Of a stretch of DNA of 64,000 bases, positions 3,524 to 60,505 are shown piece by piece. The notes beneath the pieces were generated by a model. That model did not search any database. It was given only the letters and a program-made list of their open reading frames with translations, and was not told the DNA's origin. Every line of letters starts with the position of its first letter. The stretch's first letter is position 1. Source of the stretch: Candidatus Omnitrophota bacterium (GTDB lineage Bacteria; Omnitrophota; Gorgyraeia; Aquiviventales; Aquiviventaceae). The position numbers and the translations under genes were made by a program. The DNA is taken from positions 5,475-69,474 of the forward strand of contig JAUYPJ010000080.1 of the NCBI GenBank assembly GCA_030697665.1. The letters run 5' to 3'.

Positions 3524-4444
3524 ATGGAGATCTTGGTGAGTGGGTCGCACGGGTTCATCGGCTCGGCCTTGGTGGCGTCGCTGCGGGCGAGCGGCCATCG
3601 CGTCACGCGGCTCATCCGCTCCAGCCGGCCGTCTGGAGCGAACGAGGCGGCGTGGGACCCGGCGACCGGCGCCGTCGATCTCGCAAGGCTGCAGGCGATC
3701 GACGCGGTGGTGCATCTGGCAGGGGCGAGCATCGTCTCTGGGAGGTGGACCCCGCGCAGGAAGTCGCTCATTCGCGACAGCCGCGTCCGCGGCACGCGGA
3801 CGCTGTGCGAGGCGCTGGCGACGCTCACGACGCCGCCCCGCGCGCTCCTGTGCGCCTCGGCGATCGGCTACTACGGCGACCGGGGAGATGAGGTGTTGAC
3901 AGAAGACAGCCCGGCCGGCGCCGGCTTCCTGTCGACGGTGTGCCGGGAGTGGGAGGGGGCGAGTGCCTCCGCCGCGCAGCGAGGGGTTCGCGTGGTCCAC
4001 CTGCGATTCGGGATGGTGCTGAGCCCCGCCGGCGGGGCGCTGGCCAAGATGCTTCCCCCCTTCAGGCTGGGCCTCGGCGGACCGCTGGGCGATGGCCGCC
4101 AGTACATGAGCTGGGTGTCGCTGGAGGATCTGCTGGGCGCGATCCATCACGCGCTGGCGACGGAGGCCCTGCGGGGCCCGGTGAATGTGGTGTCGCCTCA
4201 GCCGGTCACCAACCGAGACTTCACCCGGGCGCTCGGCCACGTCCTCTCGCGCCCGACGCTGCTGCCGGCCCCCGCGCCGCTGTTGCGCCTACTCTTGGGG
4301 GAGCTGGCCGATGAGGTGTTGCTGGCCAGCACTCGCGTGATGCCCACGCGGCTGCAAGCGACCGCCTATGCCTTTCGCCATCCTGAGCTGGAGGGCACCC
4401 TTCGTCATCTGCTGGCGTCCGCAGCCGCGCAGGGCCACGCATGA
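3524..4444 (+). CDS. NAD-dependent epimerase/SDR family protein (YfcH/TIGR01777-like, DUF1731 C-terminus)
   Basis: MEILVSGSHGFIGSAL glycine-rich NAD motif. ATG at 3524 is in frame with track ORF 3230..4444. Confidence 0.8.
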   Translation: MEILVSGSHGFIGSALVASLRASGHRVTRLIRSSRPSGANEAAWDPATGAVDLARLQAIDAVVHLAGASIVSGRWTPRRKSLIRDSRVRGTRTLCEALATLTTPPRALLCASAIGYYGDRGDEVLTEDSPAGAGFLSTVCREWEGASASAAQRGVRVVHLRFGMVLSPAGGALAKMLPPFRLGLGGPLGDGRQYMSWVSLEDLLGAIHHALATEALRGPVNVVSPQPVTNRDFTRALGHVLSRPTLLPAPAPLLRLLLGELADEVLLASTRVMPTRLQATAYAFRHPELEGTLRHLLASAAAQGHA

Positions 4445-6892: not shown

Positions 6893-7492
6893 ATGCCGGA
6901 TGAGTCGGGGATCATTCGCGCCGTCCTGGATGGGCAGCCGGACCGCTACGCGGAGTTGGTGGACCGATACCAGGGCCGAGCGATCCGGCTGGCGTTCAGC
7001 TTGTTGGGAAACGACGACGACGCCAGGGAGACCTCTCAGGAAGCGTTCCTGAAGGCGTACCGCTCCCTGGGCCGGTTTCGGGGCGAGGCGGCCTTCTCCA
7101 CATGGCTCTTCCGGATCGTGATCAACGAGTGTCGCAGTCGCTGGCGACGTCGGGCCAGAGAGCCGGTCGCGACGGCGCGCATCGGCGGCTCACCTGCCGC
7201 CGATGAGGAGAGCGAAGGGTCGCTCTTCGTGGATCCTGAGGATCCCGGCGCCGATCCCGCCGAGCAGCTTGCGCAACGAGAGCTGGCGCGGCGGCTCAGC
7301 CGTGAGATCGCGCGGCTGCCGATGCAACAGCGCATCGCGTTTGTGTCGCACCACCTCCACGGCTGTTCGCTGGAGGAGACCGCCGCAGTCATGCGCCGCC
7401 GCGTCGGGACGGTGAAATCCCACCTCTTCCGCGCCACGGAGCGCCTCCGGCGCACGCTGGGGCCGTGGCTGACACAGGAGCAACAGGAATGA
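6893..7492 (+). CDS. RNA polymerase ECF-type sigma-70 factor
   Basis: Region 2 (FSTWLFRIVINECRSRWRR) and region 4 (SLEETAAVMRRRVGTVKSHLFRA) signatures. Confidence 0.9.
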   Translation: MPDESGIIRAVLDGQPDRYAELVDRYQGRAIRLAFSLLGNDDDARETSQEAFLKAYRSLGRFRGEAAFSTWLFRIVINECRSRWRRRAREPVATARIGGSPAADEESEGSLFVDPEDPGADPAEQLAQRELARRLSREIARLPMQQRIAFVSHHLHGCSLEETAAVMRRRVGTVKSHLFRATERLRRTLGPWLTQEQQE

Positions 7493-7648
7493 TCCCACCA
7501 CCTGCCGGAGGCGGCACTTCTGTGGATGCTCAGATGCGTCGGATTCGCATGAGGTGGGGGGAGGCGTGCCGCCTGGCCAGCGGTGCAGCGCAAGCGCCTG
7601 TTCGCTGGCCGTCCCGCCGATTGGCGGGACACCGACAGGTGGTGGGAT
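7492..7648. repeat. inverted-repeat clamp: ATCCCACCACCTG (7492-7504) / CAGGTGGTGGGAT (7636-7648), flanked by ATGA on both sides
   Basis: Perfect 13-nt inverted repeat read directly. The right arm contains the SD-like purine tract and the ATG of the downstream gene. The left arm starts in the sigma-factor stop codon. Confidence 0.85.
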
Positions 7649-8192
7649 GAGTTTCACGACGTGGTTGCAGGGGTGGCTGACCCGTCATCCGCTCCGCGAG
7701 CCGTCCGACGGCGAGCGGGCCCGCTATACCGCTGAGGTGATGGCCCGCGTGGAAGCGCTGCGGCCGTCTGCAGCGCCCCGCGACGGATTGGCCCGCTGGG
7801 CCAAGCAGCAGGTGGTGGGATGGCCCCGCCTCGCGCTGGCCATGGCGACCGCGGCCGCCGGAGTGGCGCTCCTCGTCGGACCGATCCACCAGCGCTGGCT
7901 TGCTCAACGCGTGGTCCGTGACGCTGCCGTCTTGGCGAGCCTGGGTGAGGCGATGGCCGAACCGCTTGTCATCGACGACGACGAATCGCTCCGTGAAGCG
8001 CTGGAGGAGCTCGACGCGCTCGTGGTGGCCGAGGCCTCCTCCATTGACGATAGCCAGTGGATCGCCCAGACGCTGGAGCTGCTGGGACAACTTGAGGAAT
8101 GGCCTCCGGGCGGCGACCTCGATCCCTCAAGCGGAGCTGAGGAGTGGATCGACGAGCTTGAGCTGTTGGACGAGAGCGATCTGAACGCCTGA
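7647..8192 (+). CDS. putative anti-sigma factor (single TM, acidic C-terminal domain)
   Basis: Position after the ECF sigma gene. One TM helix (WPRLALAMATAAAGVALLVGPI). Start ATG 7647 is preceded by CAGGTGGTGGG. No recognisable ZAS motif, so the function is inferred from context. Confidence 0.5.
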   Translation: MSFTTWLQGWLTRHPLREPSDGERARYTAEVMARVEALRPSAAPRDGLARWAKQQVVGWPRLALAMATAAAGVALLVGPIHQRWLAQRVVRDAAVLASLGEAMAEPLVIDDDESLREALEELDALVVAEASSIDDSQWIAQTLELLGQLEEWPPGGDLDPSSGAEEWIDELELLDESDLNA

Positions 8193-14509: not shown

Positions 14510-15256
14510 TTAAGAGCGCCAGCGGGGGTTGCTGATGACGCGTCCCGTGAGGAACAGGCAGATCAGGCTCAGGCTCAGGTAGAAGCAGATCGGACGCGTG
14601 TCCAGCAGCCCCTTCGAGAAGTGCTGGAGGTGCTCGATGAGGGAGAGGTACTTGATGATGACGCTCGTCTGGGGATCGCGGACGAAGACATCGAGGATGC
14701 CGACGGAGAAGAGGAGCAGGATCGCGACGAAGGTGAGGACTGCGGCGATCACCTGGTTGCGCGTCAGGCTCGAAGCGAGCAGCCCGACCGCCACGAGGAC
14801 CCCGCCCAACAACGCGGTGCCGAGGTAGCCGGTGAAGACCGGGGCCCAGTCGAAGCGCGTCAAGGCGCGCAGGACCACGAAGAAGACGACGGTGGGCGCC
14901 CAGAGCAGGAGGTAGACCAGCCACGCACCGAGGAACTTGGCGACGACCACCTGGAGGTCCGTGACCGGCGCGGTAAGGAGCAGCTCGATGGTGCCGGTGC
15001 GCTTCTCCTCGCTGAACGTCCGCATCGTCAGCAGCGGGACCATGATGAGCACCGCGAACCAGTAGTAGAAGGTGGCCCCGAAAAACATCTCCGCCATCGT
15101 GAGGGACGGGTCCACCCGCGGGTCGTTCAAGACCAGCAGGAGCGTTTGGAAGACGAAGCCTTGCAGGAAGAGGAAGAGCCCCCCGACGACGTACGCGATG
15201 GGGGAGTACCAGAACGCCTTCAGCTCCCGCGTGGTCAACGCCCACAGCGCCGTCAT
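14510..15256 (-). CDS. ABC-2 type transporter permease (GldF-like)
   Basis: Six hydrophobic segments. The start MTALWALTTRELKAF at ATG 15254-15256 overlaps the ATPase stop (ATGA). Confidence 0.8.
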   Translation of the reverse strand: MTALWALTTRELKAFWYSPIAYVVGGLFLFLQGFVFQTLLLVLNDPRVDPSLTMAEMFFGATFYYWFAVLIMVPLLTMRTFSEEKRTGTIELLLTAPVTDLQVVVAKFLGAWLVYLLLWAPTVVFFVVLRALTRFDWAPVFTGYLGTALLGGVLVAVGLLASSLTRNQVIAAVLTFVAILLLFSVGILDVFVRDPQTSVIIKYLSLIEHLQHFSKGLLDTRPICFYLSLSLICLFLTGRVISNPRWRS

Positions 15257-16209
15257 CCCACCACCTGTTGCTCGTGCGTCGTCAGGTGGATGAAGACGTC
15301 TTCCAGGGACGCCTGGGCCTGCGACAGCTCCCGCAGGGCCCACCGGCGCTCCACCGCGAGCCGGAAGATCGCTTCGCGCACGTCGGCGTCCGCGCGGCTC
15401 TGCACGTCGAAGGCGACGAACCCATCGAGGCGGCCCTGCACGTTGACCGAGGTGACCCCGGGCAGCTGCGTCAGCGCCGGCTCGATCTCCGCCGGCTCCC
15501 CCCGCAGTTGCACCCGGACGATCTGCATCCCCTGCAGGCGCTGACGCAGCTGGGCCGGCGTGTCGACTACGACAATCCGGCCCTTGTCGATGATGGCCAC
15601 CCGCTGGCAGATCATCTCGACCTCCGGCAGGATGTGGGTCGAGAGCAGCACCGTGGCGGTTTGGCCCATCGCCATGATCAGCTCGCGGGTCTGGCGGATC
15701 TGGTGCGGGTCGAGTCCAACGGTGGGTTCGTCGAGGATCAGGATCTTCGGGGAGCCCAGCAGGCAGTCGGCGAGCGCCACCCGCTGGCGATAGCCCTTCG
15801 ACAACCGTCCGATGAGTTGGCGCACGGCATCCGTGAGGGCGCAGCGCTCGATGACCGACTCCGCCTGCCGCCGCCGCTGGGCCCGCGCCACCCCTTTGAT
15901 GGCGGCGCGGTAGTGCAGGTACTCTTGGACGCGCAGCTCGGGGTAGAGGACCACGTGTTCCGGCAGGTAGCCGATGCGCCGACGCACCTCCACAGAGTGC
16001 TCGGCGACATCGAGCCCGTCGATGCGGACCGTCCCGTCGGTCGGGCTCAGCATGCCGGTGAGGAGGCGGAGCATCGTCGTCTTCCCCGCGCCGTTGGGGC
16101 CGAGGAAGCCCATGATCTCACCGGCCTGGACGCTGAAGGAGACGTCGCTCAGCGCCGTGACGGTATCGTAGCGCTTGGTGAGGTTCACGACGTCGATCGG
16201 CGTGGACAT
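15253..16209 (-). CDS. ABC transporter ATP-binding protein
   Basis: Walker A GPNGAGKTT, signature LSKGYRQR, Walker B ILILDEPTVGLD. Confidence 0.9.
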   Translation of the reverse strand: MSTPIDVVNLTKRYDTVTALSDVSFSVQAGEIMGFLGPNGAGKTTMLRLLTGMLSPTDGTVRIDGLDVAEHSVEVRRRIGYLPEHVVLYPELRVQEYLHYRAAIKGVARAQRRRQAESVIERCALTDAVRQLIGRLSKGYRQRVALADCLLGSPKILILDEPTVGLDPHQIRQTRELIMAMGQTATVLLSTHILPEVEMICQRVAIIDKGRIVVVDTPAQLRQRLQGMQIVRVQLRGEPAEIEPALTQLPGVTSVNVQGRLDGFVAFDVQSRADADVREAIFRLAVERRWALRELSQAQASLEDVFIHLTTHEQQVVG

Positions 16210-19492: not shown

Positions 19493-19583
19493 CAGTCCAT
19501 AGTCCATAGTCGATAGTCCGACGAAACCGTCAGGGCTACAACGCAGGGTTTGCTATGGACTACGGACTATGGACTATCGACTG
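19493..19583. repeat. hairpin built from tandem GTCCATA/TATGGAC-type units
   Basis: cagtccatagtccatagtcgatagtccg ... ctatggactacggactatggactatcgactg. Related arms occur at 12901-12923 and 39818-39884. Confidence 0.85.
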
Positions 19584-19597
19584 CTCCGAAGCTATTG

Positions 19598-20482
19598 ATG
19601 AGTCCCACGTGGTTGACCCCGAAGTTCATCAGTCAACTGGAAGCGCTCGAGTTATCCATCAGATGGGTTCGGAGCGGGAACACGCTTGGCGGACGCTTCC
19701 CCATCAACCGTCGGGGCTCCTCGATTGAGTTCGCCGATTACGCCGCCTACTCCGCCGGCGACGACATCCGGTCGATCGACTGGAACCTGTACGCCCGCCT
19801 TGAGCGGCTCTTCATCAAGACCTACCACGAGCAGATCGAGCTGTCGGTCGAGCTCATCATCGATGCGACCGGTTCGATGGGATTGCCGACGCCGGAGAAG
19901 TTTGAGCGCGCCAAACGCCTGGCCGTCAGCCTCGGTTACGTCGGGCTCGCCGGGCGCCATCACGTGCGGCTCAGCTGGGTCACGCCGGGACGCGTGACGG
20001 CCAGCCCCTGGTTCCACCGACGGAGCGATCTGGCGCGGATGGCCGAGCAGGCGCAGCCCCTCCATGCCGGCGGGCAAGTCGCGTTCGATGAGTGGATGCG
20101 CCGCGCGGCGGCGGCCCTCCGGGTGCGCGGCGGCCAGGCCGTCGTGATCACCGACGGGATGGTGCCGCCGGCCGAGCTGTTCCGTGCGCTGCACACCCTC
20201 CTCGTGCGCAACCTCGAAGTCAAGCTCATCCAGGTGTTGACGCCGCAGGAGCTGCACCCGGCCAGGCTCTTGCGGGGCGGCCTGCTCGTCGACGTGGAGA
20301 CGGGACGCACCCACCAGTTGGCGCACAGCCCCGCGGAGCTTGAGCGGGCGGTGGCCGAGCACAACGAGGGGTTGGCCCGTTTCTGCAAGCGACGCGGGAT
20401 TGCCTTTGCCCAGCACCGGCTGGATGAGTCACTCGAGACGTTTGTGCTCAAGACGCTTCCCGTCCACGGCTTCCTCGAGTAA
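19598..20482 (+). CDS. DUF58 domain protein (vWA-like, MoxR partner)
   Basis: DDIRSIDWNLYARLERLFIKTYHEQ and IIDATGSM motifs. ATG 19598 was chosen because the TTG 19550 extension is encoded by the repeat hairpin. Confidence 0.8.
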   Translation: MSPTWLTPKFISQLEALELSIRWVRSGNTLGGRFPINRRGSSIEFADYAAYSAGDDIRSIDWNLYARLERLFIKTYHEQIELSVELIIDATGSMGLPTPEKFERAKRLAVSLGYVGLAGRHHVRLSWVTPGRVTASPWFHRRSDLARMAEQAQPLHAGGQVAFDEWMRRAAAALRVRGGQAVVITDGMVPPAELFRALHTLLVRNLEVKLIQVLTPQELHPARLLRGGLLVDVETGRTHQLAHSPAELERAVAEHNEGLARFCKRRGIAFAQHRLDESLETFVLKTLPVHGFLE

Positions 20483-20494
20483 CAATCCGACATG

Positions 20495-20645
20495 ATCCCC
20501 CCACCTACGCCAGCTTGCCGGAGGCAAGCTCGAATGCGCGTGCTCGGAGAGTCCGGGTGGAGGATGTGGCCTCAGGCCGTCGCATTCGTCACGGCGGCTC
20601 AGGGCGCGACCACCACCAGCCGCCGTGAGGCGCAGGTGGGGGGAT
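20495..20645. repeat. inverted-repeat clamp: ATCCCCCCACCT (20495-20506) / AGGTGGGGGGAT (20634-20645), flanked by ATGA
   Basis: Perfect 12-nt inverted repeat. The right arm includes the SD-like tract and ATG 20644. Relative to the copies at 7492 and 47384, the A-to-C change in the left arm is matched by T-to-G in the right arm. Confidence 0.85.
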
Positions 20646-22461
20646 GACGCTCCTCGCCCCCCTGGCCCTGCTGTGGCTCGGCAGCATCCCCGTGCTGGTG
20701 TGGCTCTGGCGCAGGACGTCGACCCACCGCCAGATCCGCGTGCCGAGCCTCGTCCCCTTCGAGCATCTGCTCCGGCGCCCTCCTCGGCGCCGCAGCCGCC
20801 TGGTCGTGAACGCGCTGTTCTGGTTGCAGCTCGGCGCGCTCCTCGGCCTGACGCTCGCGATGGCGCAGCCCGTCCTCTTCACGCGCCGTGGCCGCATGAC
20901 CCTCGTCATTCTGGATACCTCCGCGAGCATGAGCGCGCGTCTGGGGAGTTCCAGCGCGTTGGCGCGCGCCCAGCGCGCGCTGGCGGATCGGATCGCGCGC
21001 GCAGCCCACGCCGAGCAGTTCTTCCTCGTGACGACCTCTCCGGTGACCGCCCTCACGCCGCGGCCGACGAGCGACCGGCTGGCGCTGCAGCGGGCGATCC
21101 AGGCCTCGCAGGTCAGCCACCTGAGTGGGAACCTGGCCACCGCCGCGCGGATCGGCCGGGCCCTGATGGGCAGCGAGCCTGACGCGGTGTTGGTGGTGAC
21201 CGATGAGCCAGAGTCGCTTCCCACAGGCGCTGAGCACGTCCAGTGGGTGACGGTCGGCGCGACACTCCCGAACGTGGCGTTCGTCGGGCTCGATGCGTCA
21301 GGGCCGTTGTGCGAGTCGGCCGCGCCGCATCTGCTGGCCACGGTGCAGAACTTCTCGGAGGAGTCGATTCCCGTGACGGTGAGCGCTCACCAGGGCATGC
21401 AGGTGCTTGCGCAGGCCGCCGCCAAGATCGCCCCGCGCGCCCGGCAAGCGATTGCCCTTGCGCTGCCTGAAGGGACGGAAGGGTGGCTTGAGCTGGCGAT
21501 GGCCGGCGCGCCAGACCACCTCAGCGTGGACAATCGGGCGTGGATGATGCTCCGGCGGAATGCGCGGCTGCCGATCGTGGTGCGCTCACAGCGCGAACCG
21601 TTCCTGCGCGCGGTCTCCACGTGGCTCGACGCCTGCGAGGCCTTGAGGTGGACCACCGATCCCGCCGCCGTACAGGGGCCCTTCGTGCTCCTCACCGATC
21701 GCGAGGAAGAGCCGTTGCGCTCATCCGAGGCCACGATGGCGTTCCTGCCGCCGGCCGGCGCCTCACCGAGGCTCAGCACATGGGTGCGCTCATCAGACCA
21801 CCCGGTCAGCGCCTATCTCTCGCCGGTGGAGTCCGTGGCGGCCACCCTCAACCTATCGACGGCGGCGGGCCTCTCGGGAGCGCCGGTGGTCTCCGGCCTG
21901 ATCGACGGCCGCCGCGTGCCGATTGTGCTGGCGGAGGAGCACGACGGTCGACGGCGGCTCACCATGCGCTTCGATCCGGCCCAGAGTGGGGACTCGACGG
22001 TCGCGGTGCTGACCTTTTTGAACGGCGTGCGGTGGCTCATGGGACAGGCGGAGGCCGTCACGACGGGCCAGTCGCTGAGCGCGGGAGGGTTCGGCCCAGA
22101 CGCGGTGACGGTGCATCGCCCCGACGGCTCCACCGCGACGTCGTCGGTCGAGGCCGGCGCTGTCCGCTATGACGAGACGACGCTGGCCGGGCGGTACCGG
22201 CTGGTGCAGGGCGCGACAGAGGTCGTCGCGGCGGTGAACTTCTTTGATCCGCTGGAATCCAATCTGCTGGATCGCGTCTCGACGTGGGATCCATCCCTCC
22301 GCCTGCTGGGTTCGCCAGAGGCGAACGCTCCGAAACAGACCAGCCGCCTGCATCAGCGCCAGCAGGTGGTGGGGGCCTACCCGTTGGCCCACGGCGCGAT
22401 CCTGCTCCTGCTGCTCCTCGTGCTGGTCGAGTGGCGCCTCTATACCCTCAAGCGATCATGA
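20644..22461 (+). CDS. BatA-like protein (aerotolerance-regulator N-terminal TM domain + vWA)
   Basis: N-terminus LLAPLALLWLGSIPVLVWLW...VPSLVPF, then the vWA MIDAS start LVILDTSASMS. Confidence 0.75.
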   Translation: MTLLAPLALLWLGSIPVLVWLWRRTSTHRQIRVPSLVPFEHLLRRPPRRRSRLVVNALFWLQLGALLGLTLAMAQPVLFTRRGRMTLVILDTSASMSARLGSSSALARAQRALADRIARAAHAEQFFLVTTSPVTALTPRPTSDRLALQRAIQASQVSHLSGNLATAARIGRALMGSEPDAVLVVTDEPESLPTGAEHVQWVTVGATLPNVAFVGLDASGPLCESAAPHLLATVQNFSEESIPVTVSAHQGMQVLAQAAAKIAPRARQAIALALPEGTEGWLELAMAGAPDHLSVDNRAWMMLRRNARLPIVVRSQREPFLRAVSTWLDACEALRWTTDPAAVQGPFVLLTDREEEPLRSSEATMAFLPPAGASPRLSTWVRSSDHPVSAYLSPVESVAATLNLSTAAGLSGAPVVSGLIDGRRVPIVLAEEHDGRRRLTMRFDPAQSGDSTVAVLTFLNGVRWLMGQAEAVTTGQSLSAGGFGPDAVTVHRPDGSTATSSVEAGAVRYDETTLAGRYRLVQGATEVVAAVNFFDPLESNLLDRVSTWDPSLRLLGSPEANAPKQTSRLHQRQQVVGAYPLAHGAILLLLLLVLVEWRLYTLKRS

Positions 22462-46332: not shown

Positions 46333-47385
46333 TTAGAGGCGGACCTTGCTGCCGACTTCGCTCCACCATCGGTCCAGCTCAGGGGTGAAATACTTGAGCC
46401 GGGTCTTCTTATATTCTTTCGTGCTGAAGAGATTTTTGTGCGGGAACTGCCCGGCGCGCTCCTCGATGCGCCGCACGACGTCCATGCAGGCGGGATACGT
46501 TTCCGCGTGGATCATCGTGAACAGCGCGTAGGGCCAGCTGGGGTAGACGGGCCGACGGTAGCAATGGCTCACTTCCCTGAAGCGCGCCATCTGTTCCCCC
46601 GCCCGGTCCACCTCCTCGGGCGGCGCCTGCCACACCACCATGGCGTTCGCTTTGAAGCCGGCGTTGCGATGGTACAAGATCGCGGCGAACCGCCGCATGT
46701 AGCCCAGGTGCTCCATCTTCTTGGCCCACGCGAACAGCTCCTCTTCGGTCATCCCGGCCTGCTCCGCCCAGACGGCATACGGCAGCTCCAGCAGCGGGAG
46801 GTCTTCCTGGAGGATCCGGATCAACCGGACGTCCTGCTCGGTCAGCGGCGGTTTCGGCGCCATCCGGCGGGCTTCGTCGTAGATCTCCTCCGGGTTTTCC
46901 AGCGCCGCCTCCTGGCCGGTGAGGTCCAGCTTGACCCCGATCTTGTAGAGCCGCAGGGTGGGGAGCATGATCGTCTCCTCCGCCTTGCCCAGGGTATGGA
47001 GGATCCTGACGATCTGCTCCAGCGAGTCCTGCGGGGGCATGGCGATCGTGAACCAGATGTTGAAGGAATCGTTGCGCTTGTAATTATGGCTGACGCCGGG
47101 ATGCTGGTTGACGACCTCTGCAGCCTCATCGACCCGGGCCGGATCGACGCGCATGGCGACGAGGCTGCTCTGGTAACCCAGGGCGCGGGTGTCGAAAATC
47201 GCGCAGAGCTGCCGGATGACCATGGTCGCCTTGAGCCGGGCGATGCGCTCGAGGCACTCCTGTTCCGTAACGCCTAGGAGCTCCCCCAGCCGTTGAAACG
47301 GGCGATGGTCGATGGGGAACTGTTTTTGGAGCTCGGTGAGGAGCGCCTTGTCGACATCGTCAAACGTCTGGGTGGCTGTCGTCAT
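46333..47385 (-). CDS. fused AsnC/Lrp-like siroheme decarboxylase (AhbA/AhbB or NirDL-like)
   Basis: Two tandem modules, each an HTH plus a VSHNYKR / VSHCYRR signature. Start ATG 47383-47385. Confidence 0.75.
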   Translation of the reverse strand: MTTATQTFDDVDKALLTELQKQFPIDHRPFQRLGELLGVTEQECLERIARLKATMVIRQLCAIFDTRALGYQSSLVAMRVDPARVDEAAEVVNQHPGVSHNYKRNDSFNIWFTIAMPPQDSLEQIVRILHTLGKAEETIMLPTLRLYKIGVKLDLTGQEAALENPEEIYDEARRMAPKPPLTEQDVRLIRILQEDLPLLELPYAVWAEQAGMTEEELFAWAKKMEHLGYMRRFAAILYHRNAGFKANAMVVWQAPPEEVDRAGEQMARFREVSHCYRRPVYPSWPYALFTMIHAETYPACMDVVRRIEERAGQFPHKNLFSTKEYKKTRLKYFTPELDRWWSEVGSKVRL

Positions 47386-47498
47386 CCCACCACCTGTCGC
47401 TGGGTCTGCCTTCGGCAGACCCGGTGCCAGGTCCTCAACGGCCCTGTCCGCCTCGTCATGGCACACCAGCCTTCGGCTGGTGCGACAGGTGGTGGGAT
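47384..47498. repeat. inverted-repeat clamp: ATCCCACCACCTGTCGC (47384-47400) / GCGACAGGTGGTGGGAT (47482-47498), flanked by ATGA in transcript orientation
   Basis: Perfect 17-nt inverted repeat. The interior holds two GAA/TTCG-looped hairpins. On the minus-strand transcript the 3' arm carries the SD-like tract and the ATG of the decarboxylase gene. Confidence 0.85.
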
Positions 47499-48517
47499 CA
47501 TGACGCTTGCGCGGCCGGCGCCGGCAGTCCGAACTCATGGGCGGCGAGGTCGCGGAGGCGCATCAGCTCATCCGGGGTCAAGCCCGTGAGGTCTGGGGCT
47601 GCCGCGAACTCGCGCAGCGCCTCTTCGGTGGTGATGTTCGGCAGGACCGAGGCCACGGATGGCTCCGCGAGGATAAACTGGAGGGCCGCCTGACCGAGGG
47701 TGCGGCCCGTCTGCTCCGTGAGGAATGCCAGCTGGCGGACCTTCCTGAGGCCGTCGATCTGCCATTGGCGCTTGCGCTCCTCCGTGGAGACGCGATGATA
47801 GCGATGGTCTTGTTCGGTGAACGAGGTCTGTTCGGTCACCGACCCGTCAAGGAGGCCCGAGGCGTGGGGGACCCGGATCAGGAAGCTGCACGGCCGGCGG
47901 CGTCCCATGGCGAAGAGGGCTTCCCCCAGCATCTGCTCCAGGAGGTTGTAGATGATGTAGACCACATCGACGCCGCGGTGGGTGATGGCGTACGCCCCCT
48001 CCTCGATCTGTCGCGGCGCGATGGCGGGGCCCAGCGCCGGACCGTAGGCGCGGATCTTGCCCTCCTGCTTGAGCGTCTCGAGCGTCGCGAAGAGATCGTC
48101 CCGCTGCAGGGCGTCCAGGCGCGGGTTGTGGAGCTGGTAGAGGTCGATCACGTCCGTCTGCAGGCGCCGGAGGCTTTCTTCCAGGGCGCTCCGGACGTAG
48201 TCGGGCCGCCAGTCTTGCGGCAGCTCTTCGTGGCCGCGCCGGGCGTTGTGGTGCGAGACATCGTAGCCGAATTTCGTGCCGATGGTCAGGCGGCGGCGCT
48301 GAGGACCCAACGCCTTGGCCAGGATCGTCTCGCCCAGGCCGTTGCCGTAGGTGTCCGCGGTATCGAAGAAGGTGATGCCCGCCTCGTACGCCTGCTGGAG
48401 CAGCCTAACCCCCACCGCCTCCTCGGTGATGCCCCACCAGGTGGTGGCGACGGTCCAGACCCCGAAGCCGATCTCGGAGACGGTCACATCGGTTGTCCCA
48501 ATGTTTCGATATCTCAT
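47498..48517 (-). CDS. aldo/keto reductase
   Basis: FFDTADTYGNGLGE and the overall AKR pattern. Start MRYRNIG. Confidence 0.9.
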   Translation of the reverse strand: MRYRNIGTTDVTVSEIGFGVWTVATTWWGITEEAVGVRLLQQAYEAGITFFDTADTYGNGLGETILAKALGPQRRRLTIGTKFGYDVSHHNARRGHEELPQDWRPDYVRSALEESLRRLQTDVIDLYQLHNPRLDALQRDDLFATLETLKQEGKIRAYGPALGPAIAPRQIEEGAYAITHRGVDVVYIIYNLLEQMLGEALFAMGRRRPCSFLIRVPHASGLLDGSVTEQTSFTEQDHRYHRVSTEERKRQWQIDGLRKVRQLAFLTEQTGRTLGQAALQFILAEPSVASVLPNITTEEALREFAAAPDLTGLTPDELMRLRDLAAHEFGLPAPAAQAS

Positions 48518-50895: not shown

Positions 50896-52253
50896 AACCG
50901 TCCATTGTGAAGCCCGTGTCTCTCAACGCCAAGATACTGGCCGGATCCCTCGCATTGGGGGTCCTGATCGTGGCCATTGGTGCGCTGGCGGTGCATATGA
51001 GTCATACGGTTGCTCGTTCCTCGACGGCGATCCTGGTTGAAAACGTCTCCAGCCTCAAGGCGGCTGAAGAGCTGGAAATCGCCTTACTGGATCAGAAAGG
51101 GGTTGTGGGCAGCTACCTGTTGGATGGCGATGAGAAGTGGCTGCGGCTCCTGGAGGAGAAGCGCAAGAAATACGACGAGTGGTTTGCCCGGGCGAAAGAC
51201 GTGGCGCTCACGGGTCACGAGCAGCGCATCCTTGAGCGGATCCGACTCCTCTATCAGGAGTATGACCGCCTGCGATTCCAGGTCATCCGGCTCGCTCAGG
51301 ACGGCAGCCGCTTCGCAGCCCAGCAGCTGTTGCTGAACCGCGTCCGTGAGATCGTGGAGTCGCTCTATGACGCCTGCGAGGAACTCCTGTTCTTCAACGA
51401 GCAGTTGATCGCCGAGTCACAGAAGAAAAGCCAGCAGCAGCTTACCTGGTTCCAAGCTGTGCTCTGGAGCAGCATCGCGGTGGCGATCTTCCTGGGCCTG
51501 CTCGGAGGATGGATGGTCGCTCGGGGCATGACGAAGCGGCTGGTGCAATCCGAGAAACTGGCGTCCCTGGGACACATGGCAGGTCTGGTCGCCCATGAGG
51601 TGCGCAATCCCCTCACGGCAATCAAGATGCGGGTTCACTCGCTTCAGGAGGAACTGGTTGCTTCTGTCTCAAGCCAGGATGATGTGGAAGTCATCCGGCA
51701 GGAAATCGAGCGACTGGAGCGGATCGTCCAGAACTTCCTCGACTTCGTGCGGCTCCCAGAACCTAAGATTCAACCGCTCTCACTGAGCGACGTCATCAAA
51801 CGAGCTCTTGAAGTTCTGAGGCCGAATCTGGAGGAACACGCGGTTCAGGTCACGATGCGCTTGTCTGATGGGCTTCCCGCTATTCAGGGTGACGCCGAGC
51901 AGTTGGAGCAGGTGTTCTTGAACCTGCTCCTGAACGCCATCCAGGCGATGCCGGGAGGGGGCGCCATCGAACTGGCGGCATCCTGGATCAAAGGCCGCAC
52001 GGAGACGGACGGCTCGATAGAAGTGGCCGTGAACGACACAGGACCTGGTATTCCAAAGGAGCTACGCGAAAAGATCTTTGACCCCTTCTTCACCACCAAG
52101 GCCAATGGCATCGGCCTGGGGCTTTCGCTGGCCAAAAAAGTCGTGGAGCAGCATCGAGGGGTCATTGAAGTGCAGGACCGCAATGGATCGGGCACGGCGG
52201 TGACCATCCGGCTTCCTGCCCGACAGCCTGTTGAGGCGCAGGTGGTAGGATGA
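50892..52253 (+). CDS. sensor histidine kinase (NtrB/AtoS-like)
   Basis: Two TM helices, H-box [10 protein letters not shown], and N/G boxes LLLNAIQAM and DTGPGI. Confidence 0.85.
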
Positions 52254-57431: not shown

Positions 57432-57510
57432 AAGGGTCTGGGCATTGTGCCCGGAGGATACTTTCTAGTGGTCGGGCCGCCACCTAGCGTTTGCTGGATG
57501 GCGGCTTTTT
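57432..57510 (+). promoter_or_regulatory. structured-RNA-like element, copy 1 (AAGGGTCT - stem-loop - GGAGGA - GTGGTCGGGCCGCCA - terminator hairpin + T5)
   Basis: Shares four conserved blocks with 60416-60505, while the first stem differs in sequence but stays paired. Confidence 0.4.
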
Positions 57511-60415: not shown

Positions 60416-60505
60416 AAGGGTCTAAGAAGGATGGCGCGTGCCCCTTCTTAGAGGACGTTCGGTGGTCGGGCCGCCATCCGAGTGACATCACGGATGGCGG
60501 CGTTT
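60416..60505 (+). promoter_or_regulatory. structured-RNA-like element, copy 2, ending in perfect 10-bp hairpin GCCGCCATCC/GGATGGCGGC
   Basis: Same block order as 57432-57510. Lies 23 nt upstream of the MscS start codon. Confidence 0.4.

Follow-up and report, generated by a model that had tools for sequence, protein, structure and literature searches.

A MITE-like transposable element of Candidatus Omnitrophota at the start codon of batA, with an open frame that probably relays ribosomes to the interrupted gene

In the 64-kb stretch of Candidatus Omnitrophota DNA analyzed here (the window; contig JAUYPJ010000080.1), a short repeat lies at positions 20493-20647 between a gene for a DUF58 protein and a BatA/VWA gene (batA). 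The repeat belongs to a family of non-autonomous elements of Candidatus Omnitrophota that resemble MITEs (miniature inverted-repeat transposable elements) and, an autonomous partner apart, have all that the structural definition of a MITE includes, namely, terminal inverted repeats (TIRs), a target-site duplication (TSD) of fixed length, small size, many copies at unrelated loci and presence/absence polymorphism. We propose that this mobile element sits at the start codon of the gene that it interrupts and that an open reading frame (ORF) crossing it, the bridge ORF, is probably translated and passes ribosomes on to the interrupted gene, preserving coupling. Translation of this ORF and the relay of ribosomes are deduced from sequence. 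The observations on which the proposal is built are the anatomy of the element, its multiplicity, its TSDs and empty sites, the covariation of its closing helix, and the conservation and openness of its frame.

The frame from the left ATG to the right TGA is the main feature of the element and was overlooked in a preliminary description of this copy. All three copies in the window are open over this distance (162, 156, and 120 nt) and read MIPPP...QV(V/G)G followed by the stop. A family sample was made of 108 distinct oriented copies drawn from the window and from the loci listed in the scan described below. In this sample the length is a multiple of three in 92 copies (binomial p 1e-28), and 86 copies are open as MIPPP...QVVG and stop, and these open frames of 34-59 codons share their N- and C-termini. 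There are 0.69 stops per 100 codons in the ATG frame versus 2.36 and 2.26 in the other two frames, 23 distinct lengths are in frame versus 12 out of frame (p 9e-5), and length differences among related copies are multiples of three throughout. In copies flanked by TAA there is no left start codon and no frame bias (3 of 9 are in frame). Immediately before the left TGA, 92 copies have A, 8 have G, 4 have T, and 4 have C; in about 80% of copies this TGA ends a long upstream ORF (a median of 205 codons are open, versus 23 in other frames), and the right ATG begins a long ORF in 99 of the 108. The bridge peptides are alike only in the translated repeats, and selection appears to act on the passage of ribosomes and not on a peptide product.

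Some observations on individual bridge ORFs are given here for completeness. Among shorter versions of the element only one copy in the right context was found, a 36-nt mini element on the minus strand of L078 (about 4130-4170) with 7 nt between the arms, which is in frame and reads MIPPPVLQVVG and stop; its site is orthologous to L038:3845-3982, where the related genome has a full 138-nt copy. L-numbers denote genomic loci taken from scan matches and related contigs. A Shine-Dalgarno (SD) sequence before the left ATG is not enriched in copies without an overlapping upstream gene (36% versus 39%). Extended -10-like sequences (TGTGCTAGCATA, TATAAT) lie 8-12 nt 5' of the left ATG in the upstream flanks of L036:188, L081:2854, L096:3715, and L041:5506, a hint that leaderless or near-leaderless transcripts may begin at some bridge ORFs. 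In L020 (1314-1420) a left end (ATGATCCCACCACCT) is followed by a degenerate right arm without TGA and the frame reads through into an ORF, which we take from its sequence (...IGIVTSDKMQKTRVV...) to be that of ribosomal protein S17 (rpsQ); the outcome would be an MIPPP N-terminal extension.

One genome per prokaryotic species was scanned with the pattern ATCCCNCCACCT-(76-136 nt)-AGGTGGNGGGAT, and at least 109 stretches matched. Nearly all of the matches listed are in metagenome-assembled genomes (MAGs) of Candidatus Omnitrophota, some of which are labelled Planctomycetales, and the few outside the phylum (Sutcliffiella, Lachnospiraceae, and Patescibacteria) are without the flanking signature. 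In the window the two-arm pattern has three matches versus none in 100 shuffles; the window itself has 75-77% nucleotide identity to the Omnitrophota contig L031. Copies are 100-175 bp long and end in an 11-bp TIR, TCCCNCCACCT...AGGTGGNGGGA. Interiors share no sequence except among close copies, and within a single MAG two loci whose flanks are unrelated may have interiors of 80-99% identity (e.g., L005:1741 and L036:60). The matching flanking triplets are TGA/TCA in 111 cases, TAA in 5, and TTA in 4, and copies without ATG and GA flanks bear matched TAA/TAA or TTA/TTA. The TSD is therefore a 3-bp TNA, here TGA.

Comparison of filled and empty orthologous sites indicates that the element was inserted and confirms the duplication. 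L003 and L094 are filled (...TTATGA[TCCC...GGGATGA]CCAAA...) where L074 is empty (...CTTATGAATAAGACA..., site TTATGAATAAG); L001:2882 is filled where L094 is empty (...AAATCATGAAACC..., site ATCATGAAACC); and L061 (...CCG TGA [tccc...ggga] TGA TGCC...) is filled where L067 is empty (...CCGC TGA TGTCG...). The L061/L067 pair shows that the duplicated unit is TGA and not ATGA. Thus, of the two explanations that had been offered for the ATGA on either side of the copy, a target-site duplication or a conserved element boundary, the duplication stands, with a unit of 3 bp, and a mere boundary does not. The element is too short for a transposase gene. An autonomous partner was sought in 847 kb of related loci, among pairs of arms separated by at most 4 kb whose TNA flanks match, and no transposase or partner of insertion sequence (IS) size was found; all such distant arm pairs were the left end of one small copy and the right end of the next. 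The sole diverged candidate, L088:3942-5915, was rejected; it encloses a fumarase gene.

The batA copy follows the family pattern (Table 1). As had been recognized before, the left TGA is not the stop of the upstream DUF58 gene. The ORF that begins at the rebuilt ATG is matched by the Pfam BatA profile from its first residue on, and an NCBI protein from a Candidatus Omnitrophota MAG (P0001) has the same sequence and length as this 605-aa ORF. The TGA of the bridge ORF overlaps the rebuilt ATG in a 4-nt ATGA, and AGGTGG in the right repeat sits 7 nt 5' of that ATG, with the left arm as its exact complement. In a relative with 83% identity that is free of the element (L111), the same gene starts GTGACG and the TGA target is present. 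Because of this relative and the filled and empty sites, the best explanation of the left ATGA is that it is the original batA start codon plus A; the ATG that now opens the bridge ORF at 20492 would then have been the start codon of batA before insertion.

Table 1. Positions of the batA copy, its neighbors, and its sister copies in the window
Feature	Position	Strand	Basis
Sister copy c1, A-T variant, 162 nt; neighbors, ECF sigma factor gene (6893-7492) and next ORF	7489-7650	+	
DUF58 ORF	19550-20482	+	Pfam PF01882, E 1.3e-19
TAA stop of upstream DUF58 gene	20480-20482	+	ORF list; Pfam DUF58
Left ATGA	20492-20495	+	sequence
Bridge ORF, 156 nt, 51 codons plus stop, MIPPPTPACRRQARMRVLGESGWRMWPQAVAFVTAAQGATTTSRREAQVGG	20492-20647	+	translation; frame kept family-wide
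Left copy of 3-bp TSD, TGA	20493-20495	+	filled versus empty orthologous sites; TSD tally
5' arm ATCCCCCCACCT	20495-20506	+	sequence
Left TIR TCCCCCCACCT, anti-SD strand, codes Pro-Pro-Pro of bridge ORF; variant C at 20500	20496-20506	+	
Closing helix (17 bp), inner 5 nt, 5' side, ACGCC; pairs with 20629-20633	20507-20511	+	pairing counts, fold
Hairpin H1, 8-bp stem, GGA loop, GCC-NNN-GGC apex	20512-20530	+	fold; family architecture
Hairpin H2, variable middle arm, CGAATGCG...CGCATTCG	20531-20588	+	fold
Hairpin H3, CACGGCGGCT...AGCCGCCGTG	20590-20627	+	fold
Closing helix, inner 5 nt, 3' side, GGCGC	20629-20633	+	pairing counts, fold
3' arm AGGTGGGGGGAT	20634-20645	+	sequence
Right TIR AGGTGGGGGGA, bears SD-like AGGTGG; final A completes batA ATG; variant G at 20640	20634-20644	+	
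Right ATGA	20644-20647	+	sequence
BatA/VWA gene, 605 aa, begins at rebuilt ATG	20644-22461	+	Pfam BatA profile
Right TSD copy TGA, doubling as bridge-ORF stop	20645-20647	+	
Sister copy c3, 120 nt, A-T variant, between aldo/keto reductase gene and NirD/L-like gene	47382-47501	-	

The arms of this copy differ from those of the two sister copies, which are ATCCCACCACCT and AGGTGGTGGGAT, by an A-to-C change in the 5' arm and a T-to-G change in the 3' arm that had been described as compensatory. This is borne out: C at 20500 and G at 20640 are partners of one base pair, the other two copies in the window have A and T there, and with C-G in place of A-U the terminal helix of this copy stays whole. 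In the left arm the swap is a synonymous change of a Pro codon (CCA to CCC), and in the right arm it replaces Val by Gly, in keeping with an ORF whose peptide sequence is unimportant. Across 107 aligned copies from the window and public genomes this pair is AU in 87, CG in 14, and unpaired in 6. The C-G pair arose in at least 8 clusters of interior similarity that are otherwise mostly A-T and therefore the correlation exceeds what one inherited C/G subfamily would give. Two orthologous copies (L038:1109 and L046:1456) differ at this position, with C·U in one genome versus C-G in its counterpart.

The closing helix has 17 bp, that is, five pairs beyond the 12-nt arm reported earlier, and the inner five covary strongly. 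Positions 13-17 are paired in 91-97% of copies versus 42-70% when ends of different copies are combined, and each shows three or four pair types (at one of them CG 37, UA 37, GC 22, and AU 4), and position 18 is paired in only 13% of copies. Over the 17 pairs, 97.7% of cells are paired versus 84.7% in shuffles, and the covariation score is 0.306 versus 0.066 in shuffles, none of 500 reaching it, with slid controls at 0.03-0.08; the statistical test for covariation between arm positions that had been asked for is thus positive. Copies with A on the left at position 13 almost never have T opposite it on the right. The T is avoided because it would make an in-frame TAG, and the A·C mismatch within the closing helix of this copy (20507 opposite 20633) is an instance of this avoidance. 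The keeping of the helix and the reading-frame constraint act on the same bases.

Inside the helix, 88 of the 108 copies have exactly three hairpins, and the four-way junction has 0-1 unpaired bases. In the family, hairpins 1 and 3 have about 8 bp and loops of 3-4 nt, often with a GCC-NNN-GGC apex, and the middle hairpin ranges from 11 to 93 nt. Both hairpins that had been noted in this copy, the one with the GGA loop and ggcggct...agccgcc, are in its minimum-free-energy fold (-97.8 kcal/mol for RNA, z -3.6; -59.9 kcal/mol for bottom-strand DNA, z -8.1). The mean minimum free energy of the family is -81.8 kcal/mol for the sense and -81.7 for the antisense strand, with 4.9% and 4.5% G-U pairs, respectively. 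Without such strand asymmetry the fold is not demonstrably an RNA-level feature. Among related copies stem bases are changed in 18% of cases versus 41% for unpaired bases and therefore the hairpins are under some constraint. Rfam, searched at gathering thresholds for all of the window and with E up to 10 for the locus, yielded no family for the element, only chance-level matches with E > 1. Arm-like sequences, AUCCCACCACAUU...AAUGUGGUGGGAU, occur within the middle hairpin of L069:5411, L084:5058, L050:3114, and L003:2469, which suggests nested or partial copies inside copies.

How the element might act is proposed as follows. Its target is the TGA made of a gene's start codon and the next base (A-TGA), which very often is also the -4 stop/start overlap of two coupled genes. 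The old start codon, with its original driver, either an upstream SD or a ribosome terminating nearby, would open a short ORF beginning ATG-ATC-CCN-CCA-CCT (MIPPP), which crosses the whole element in frame and ends at the right-hand TGA. This TGA overlaps the ATG rebuilt from the last A of the element and the duplicated TG, with AGGTGG supplied 7 nt upstream by the right repeat. Ribosomes on the bridge ORF would open the helix, in which this SD and ATG are otherwise buried, and at the downstream gene they would then terminate and reinitiate or a new 30S subunit would bind, and the expression and coupling of the interrupted gene would thereby be preserved. The Pro-Pro-Pro codons may also play some role. 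Such a relay has been put forward for a class of mycobacterial repeats (the MIRUs discussed below) and would fit both models of coupling, RNA unfolding and reinitiation (PMC12548453).

Several points weigh against this proposal. At the batA copy the upstream gene stops with TAA 10 nt ahead of the ATG and no SD stands out in front of it, and the manner in which the bridge ORF would be initiated here is uncertain. Of the 108 copies, 16 do not keep the frame and another 6 keep it but are interrupted by a stop; either the relay can be dispensed with or such copies are in decay. Folding energies of -80 to -100 kcal/mol seriously hinder translation, and the relay does not account for the retention of the three hairpins seen in the lower rate of change of their stem bases. 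Five bridge peptides were checked by exact sequence among 15 billion proteins and none was present; therefore no gene caller predicts them. Some empty orthologous sites (sets 3 and 4) show TAA and a spacer and not ATGA, so the ancestral target cannot always be reconstructed. No transposase and no full-length partner with matching ends was found in the 847 kb of related loci, and mobility is deduced solely from copies, TSDs, and empty sites. Lastly, the scan pattern itself fixed 11 of the 12 arm positions. In an unbiased, relaxed re-scan of the same loci all fixed positions were intact in about 123 of 133 elements, and further compensated doubles were found, TCCCATCACCT/AGGTGATGGGA in L003 and CCCC.../...GGGG in L025.

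The preliminary description had called the arms an anti-SD/SD clamp, and the corresponding alternative is a host cis-regulatory RNA in which the anti-SD arm sequesters the SD and start until a signal (temperature, a ligand, a protein, or EF-P-dependent Pro-Pro-Pro pausing) opens it, the repeat being spread or kept for useful regulation. AGGTGG 7 nt before the ATG with its exact complement in the left arm, the compensatory changes that maintain the helix, a fold stabler than shuffles (z -3.6), and the persistence of solo right ends as SD-plus-ATGA cassettes (52240-52253 and, on the minus strand, 15253-15266) are all as this alternative would have them. An inverted-repeat end that carries an SD, however, automatically has an anti-SD at the opposite end, and the role of the clamp as a regulatory device is left unproven since the sense and antisense strands do not differ in how well they fold or in how rarely they use G-U pairs, as in DNA palindromes and not as in strand-specific RNAs. 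Moreover, no Rfam family matches, the interior has no conserved sequence for a ligand pocket, a G+C-rich 17-bp helix will not melt physiologically, and the TSD, the empty sites, and the scatter over unrelated operons indicate insertion and not evolution in situ. We therefore regard a cis-regulatory RNA as unlikely. Less likely still is that the element is a plain selfish MITE whose structure serves transposition only and whose open frame was inherited from founders without a role in expression. It would explain the TIR, the TSD, and the empty sites, the symmetric architecture with similar sub-terminal GCC-NNN-GGC hairpins at both ends, and the lack of strand asymmetry in folding, but not the 23 in-frame lengths and the indels in multiples of three between related copies, the depletion of stops in the ATG frame only, the loss of frame bias in copies without the left start codon, or the avoidance of T where TAG would arise. 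Taken together, length, stops, start codon, and T avoidance call for ongoing selection on translation in place of founder inheritance.

The product could instead be a genuine family of small proteins (MIPPP...QVVG) with a function, as the 86 open frames of 34-59 codons with shared termini and few stops might be taken to mean. The shared termini, however, are translated inverted repeats, the interiors are dissimilar beyond close copies and dictated by the hairpins, and the peptides, read by eye from the translations, are rich in Arg, Ala, Gly, and Pro with no recurring motif between the ends; the variant in the batA copy changes Val to Gly, and none of the five peptides looked up is in protein databases. 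A functional small protein is thus very improbable. A programmed translational bypass, in which ribosomes hop over a folded insert as in T4 gene 60 or the mitochondrial byp elements, is hardly to be expected. In its favor, the insert is compact and folded, a stop codon precedes it and a restart site follows, and an SD-like sequence lies close to where ribosomes would land. Against it, the ORFs on either side belong to separate genes, differ in frame, and have starts of their own, no take-off codon is matched by a landing codon, and a bypass predicts the opposite of selection for an open frame across the insert. Integron attC sites, REP/RAYT, and IS200/IS605 ends were also considered and rejected since the element's ends, duplication, and constraint to an open frame suit none of them.

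A literature search on repeats, SD sequences, and MITEs of Omnitrophota, on in-frame MITEs at stop/start codons, and on the arm sequences gave no description of the element, and the arm strings appeared only in unrelated primers. MIRUs, the interspersed repetitive units of mycobacteria, are short intercistronic repeats, mobile in appearance, that insert at start codons and carry an ORF coupled at -4 nt, which is thought to limit harm to expression (PMC12548453). Our element is like them in its insertion at a start codon and in having an ORF coupled to the downstream gene; in most copies the start and stop of the bridge ORF overlap the flanking stop and start in the orientation of the operon. 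MIRUs are direct, often tandem units of 46-101 bp (variable-number tandem repeats, VNTR) and are not known to have TIRs or an SD/anti-SD helix. The element differs from MIRUs in its TIR of 11 bp, its TNA duplication, its closing helix of 17 bp, and its three hairpins, belongs to another phylum, and shares no sequence with them; neither homology to MIRUs nor a VNTR organization was found, the repeats being inverted with only occasional tandem pairs that share a TGA (L036 and L049). It is an analogue of MIRUs and not a member. In these tandem pairs one ATGA is shared and two bridge ORFs lie head to tail (minus strand; L036, 60-191 and 188-346; L049, 3133-3297 and 3294-3440).

Among bacterial MITEs, the Neisseria Correia elements, ERIC, and RUP are non-autonomous elements of 100-170 bp with TIRs and short TSDs that are co-transcribed with operons and form long mRNA hairpins. 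The pneumococcal repeats are the subject of PMC3049150. The element resembles these MITEs in size class, TIRs, short TSD, and hairpins. To our knowledge, however, they lie in untranslated spacers, are not constrained to open frames, duplicate TA, and do not have ends that rebuild a start codon and SD, whereas here TNA is duplicated, the frame is open, and the ends do rebuild both. Rickettsia palindromic elements are palindromic mobile repeats of similar size that survive by in-frame translation; they insert inside genes and join the host protein, whereas this element makes a separate mini-ORF from the host start codon to the rebuilt one. At ATGA and TGATG junctions translational coupling has been described in which a buried SD and start are opened by ribosomes of the upstream frame, with a 4-nt stop/start overlap (PMC12548453; in part, PMC6728339). 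Compared with such gene-by-gene coupling, the arrangement is here delivered ready-made by a mobile element at many unrelated junctions. TAA-flanked copies are often on TAATG (-1 overlap) junctions (GGGATAATG...), as at L046:5032, L089:3039, L096:3715, and L105:4396, and therefore insertion at stop/start overlaps is not confined to TGA. Duplications of 3 bp with a fixed-N-fixed pattern such as TNA are typical of the IS5 / PIF-Harbinger (PHIS) superfamily (PMC4482050). The 3-bp TNA-type duplication of the element is common to both; the comparison is one of duplications, and with no transposase found in the 847 kb of related loci the link to IS5/PHIS is a lead only.

If the bridge ORF does relay ribosomes, this would be the second independent mobile repeat, after the mycobacterial MIRU, that neutralizes its own insertion as a relay ORF between a start codon and a rebuilt one, and the solution would be built into the transposon ends, one repeat supplying SD and ATG and its mirror image the start of the ORF. 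The elements are unannotated and lie between many Omnitrophota genes, three of them in the 64-kb window, and they can lead start-codon calls and operon predictions astray in the MAGs of this phylum, which has no standard genetic system. They also offer a large natural set of junctions for the study of termination-reinitiation, of the unwinding of very stable structures by ribosomes, and of N-terminal polyproline stalling, and a clean case of helix covariation and reading-frame constraint on the same bases, as in the T that is avoided, although it would restore pairing, where it would make TAG. A bolder view, which we hold to be rather unlikely, is that the family is a domesticated, phylum-wide coupling module in which many junctions depend on the passage of ribosomes through a polyproline stall (EF-P) or on processing of the helix (e.g., by RNase III), giving a global point of post-transcriptional control, or else that the four-way junction, which is perfect and conserved, marks an undescribed mechanism of transposition that recognizes folded DNA. 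The shared dependence would arise because each copy starts Met-Ile-Pro-Pro-Pro and buries the SD of the next gene in the 17-bp helix.

The DUF58-BatA junction turns over quickly and is not the same in close relatives as in the window. In L111 (175-200) it holds only a 19-nt spacer, with ATGAGGTGAGAGGTGA, and in L110 (1390-1500) and L112 (725-837) a spacer of about 110 nt that starts TAACGCCACCTG and has no right arm, which is a decayed remnant. Elsewhere in the window there are solo right-end cassettes without a left arm, CAGGTGGT[G/A]GGATG, at 52240-52253 (+), 15253-15266 (-), and 7810-7822 (+). At the cassettes at 52240 and 15253 the upstream gene terminates as ...QVVG and stop, and the next gene begins on the ATGA of the cassette; these two look like deletion remnants retained as ribosome-binding sites. 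In the cassette at 7810, TGG replaces TGA and the sequence is read as QQVVGW within the ORF downstream of the sister copy c1. The window also has two matches to the nhaA-I (Na+) riboswitch, at 57434-57485 (+) and 60418-60479 (+), with 43.5 and 40.5 bits, respectively, versus an Rfam gathering threshold of 37.

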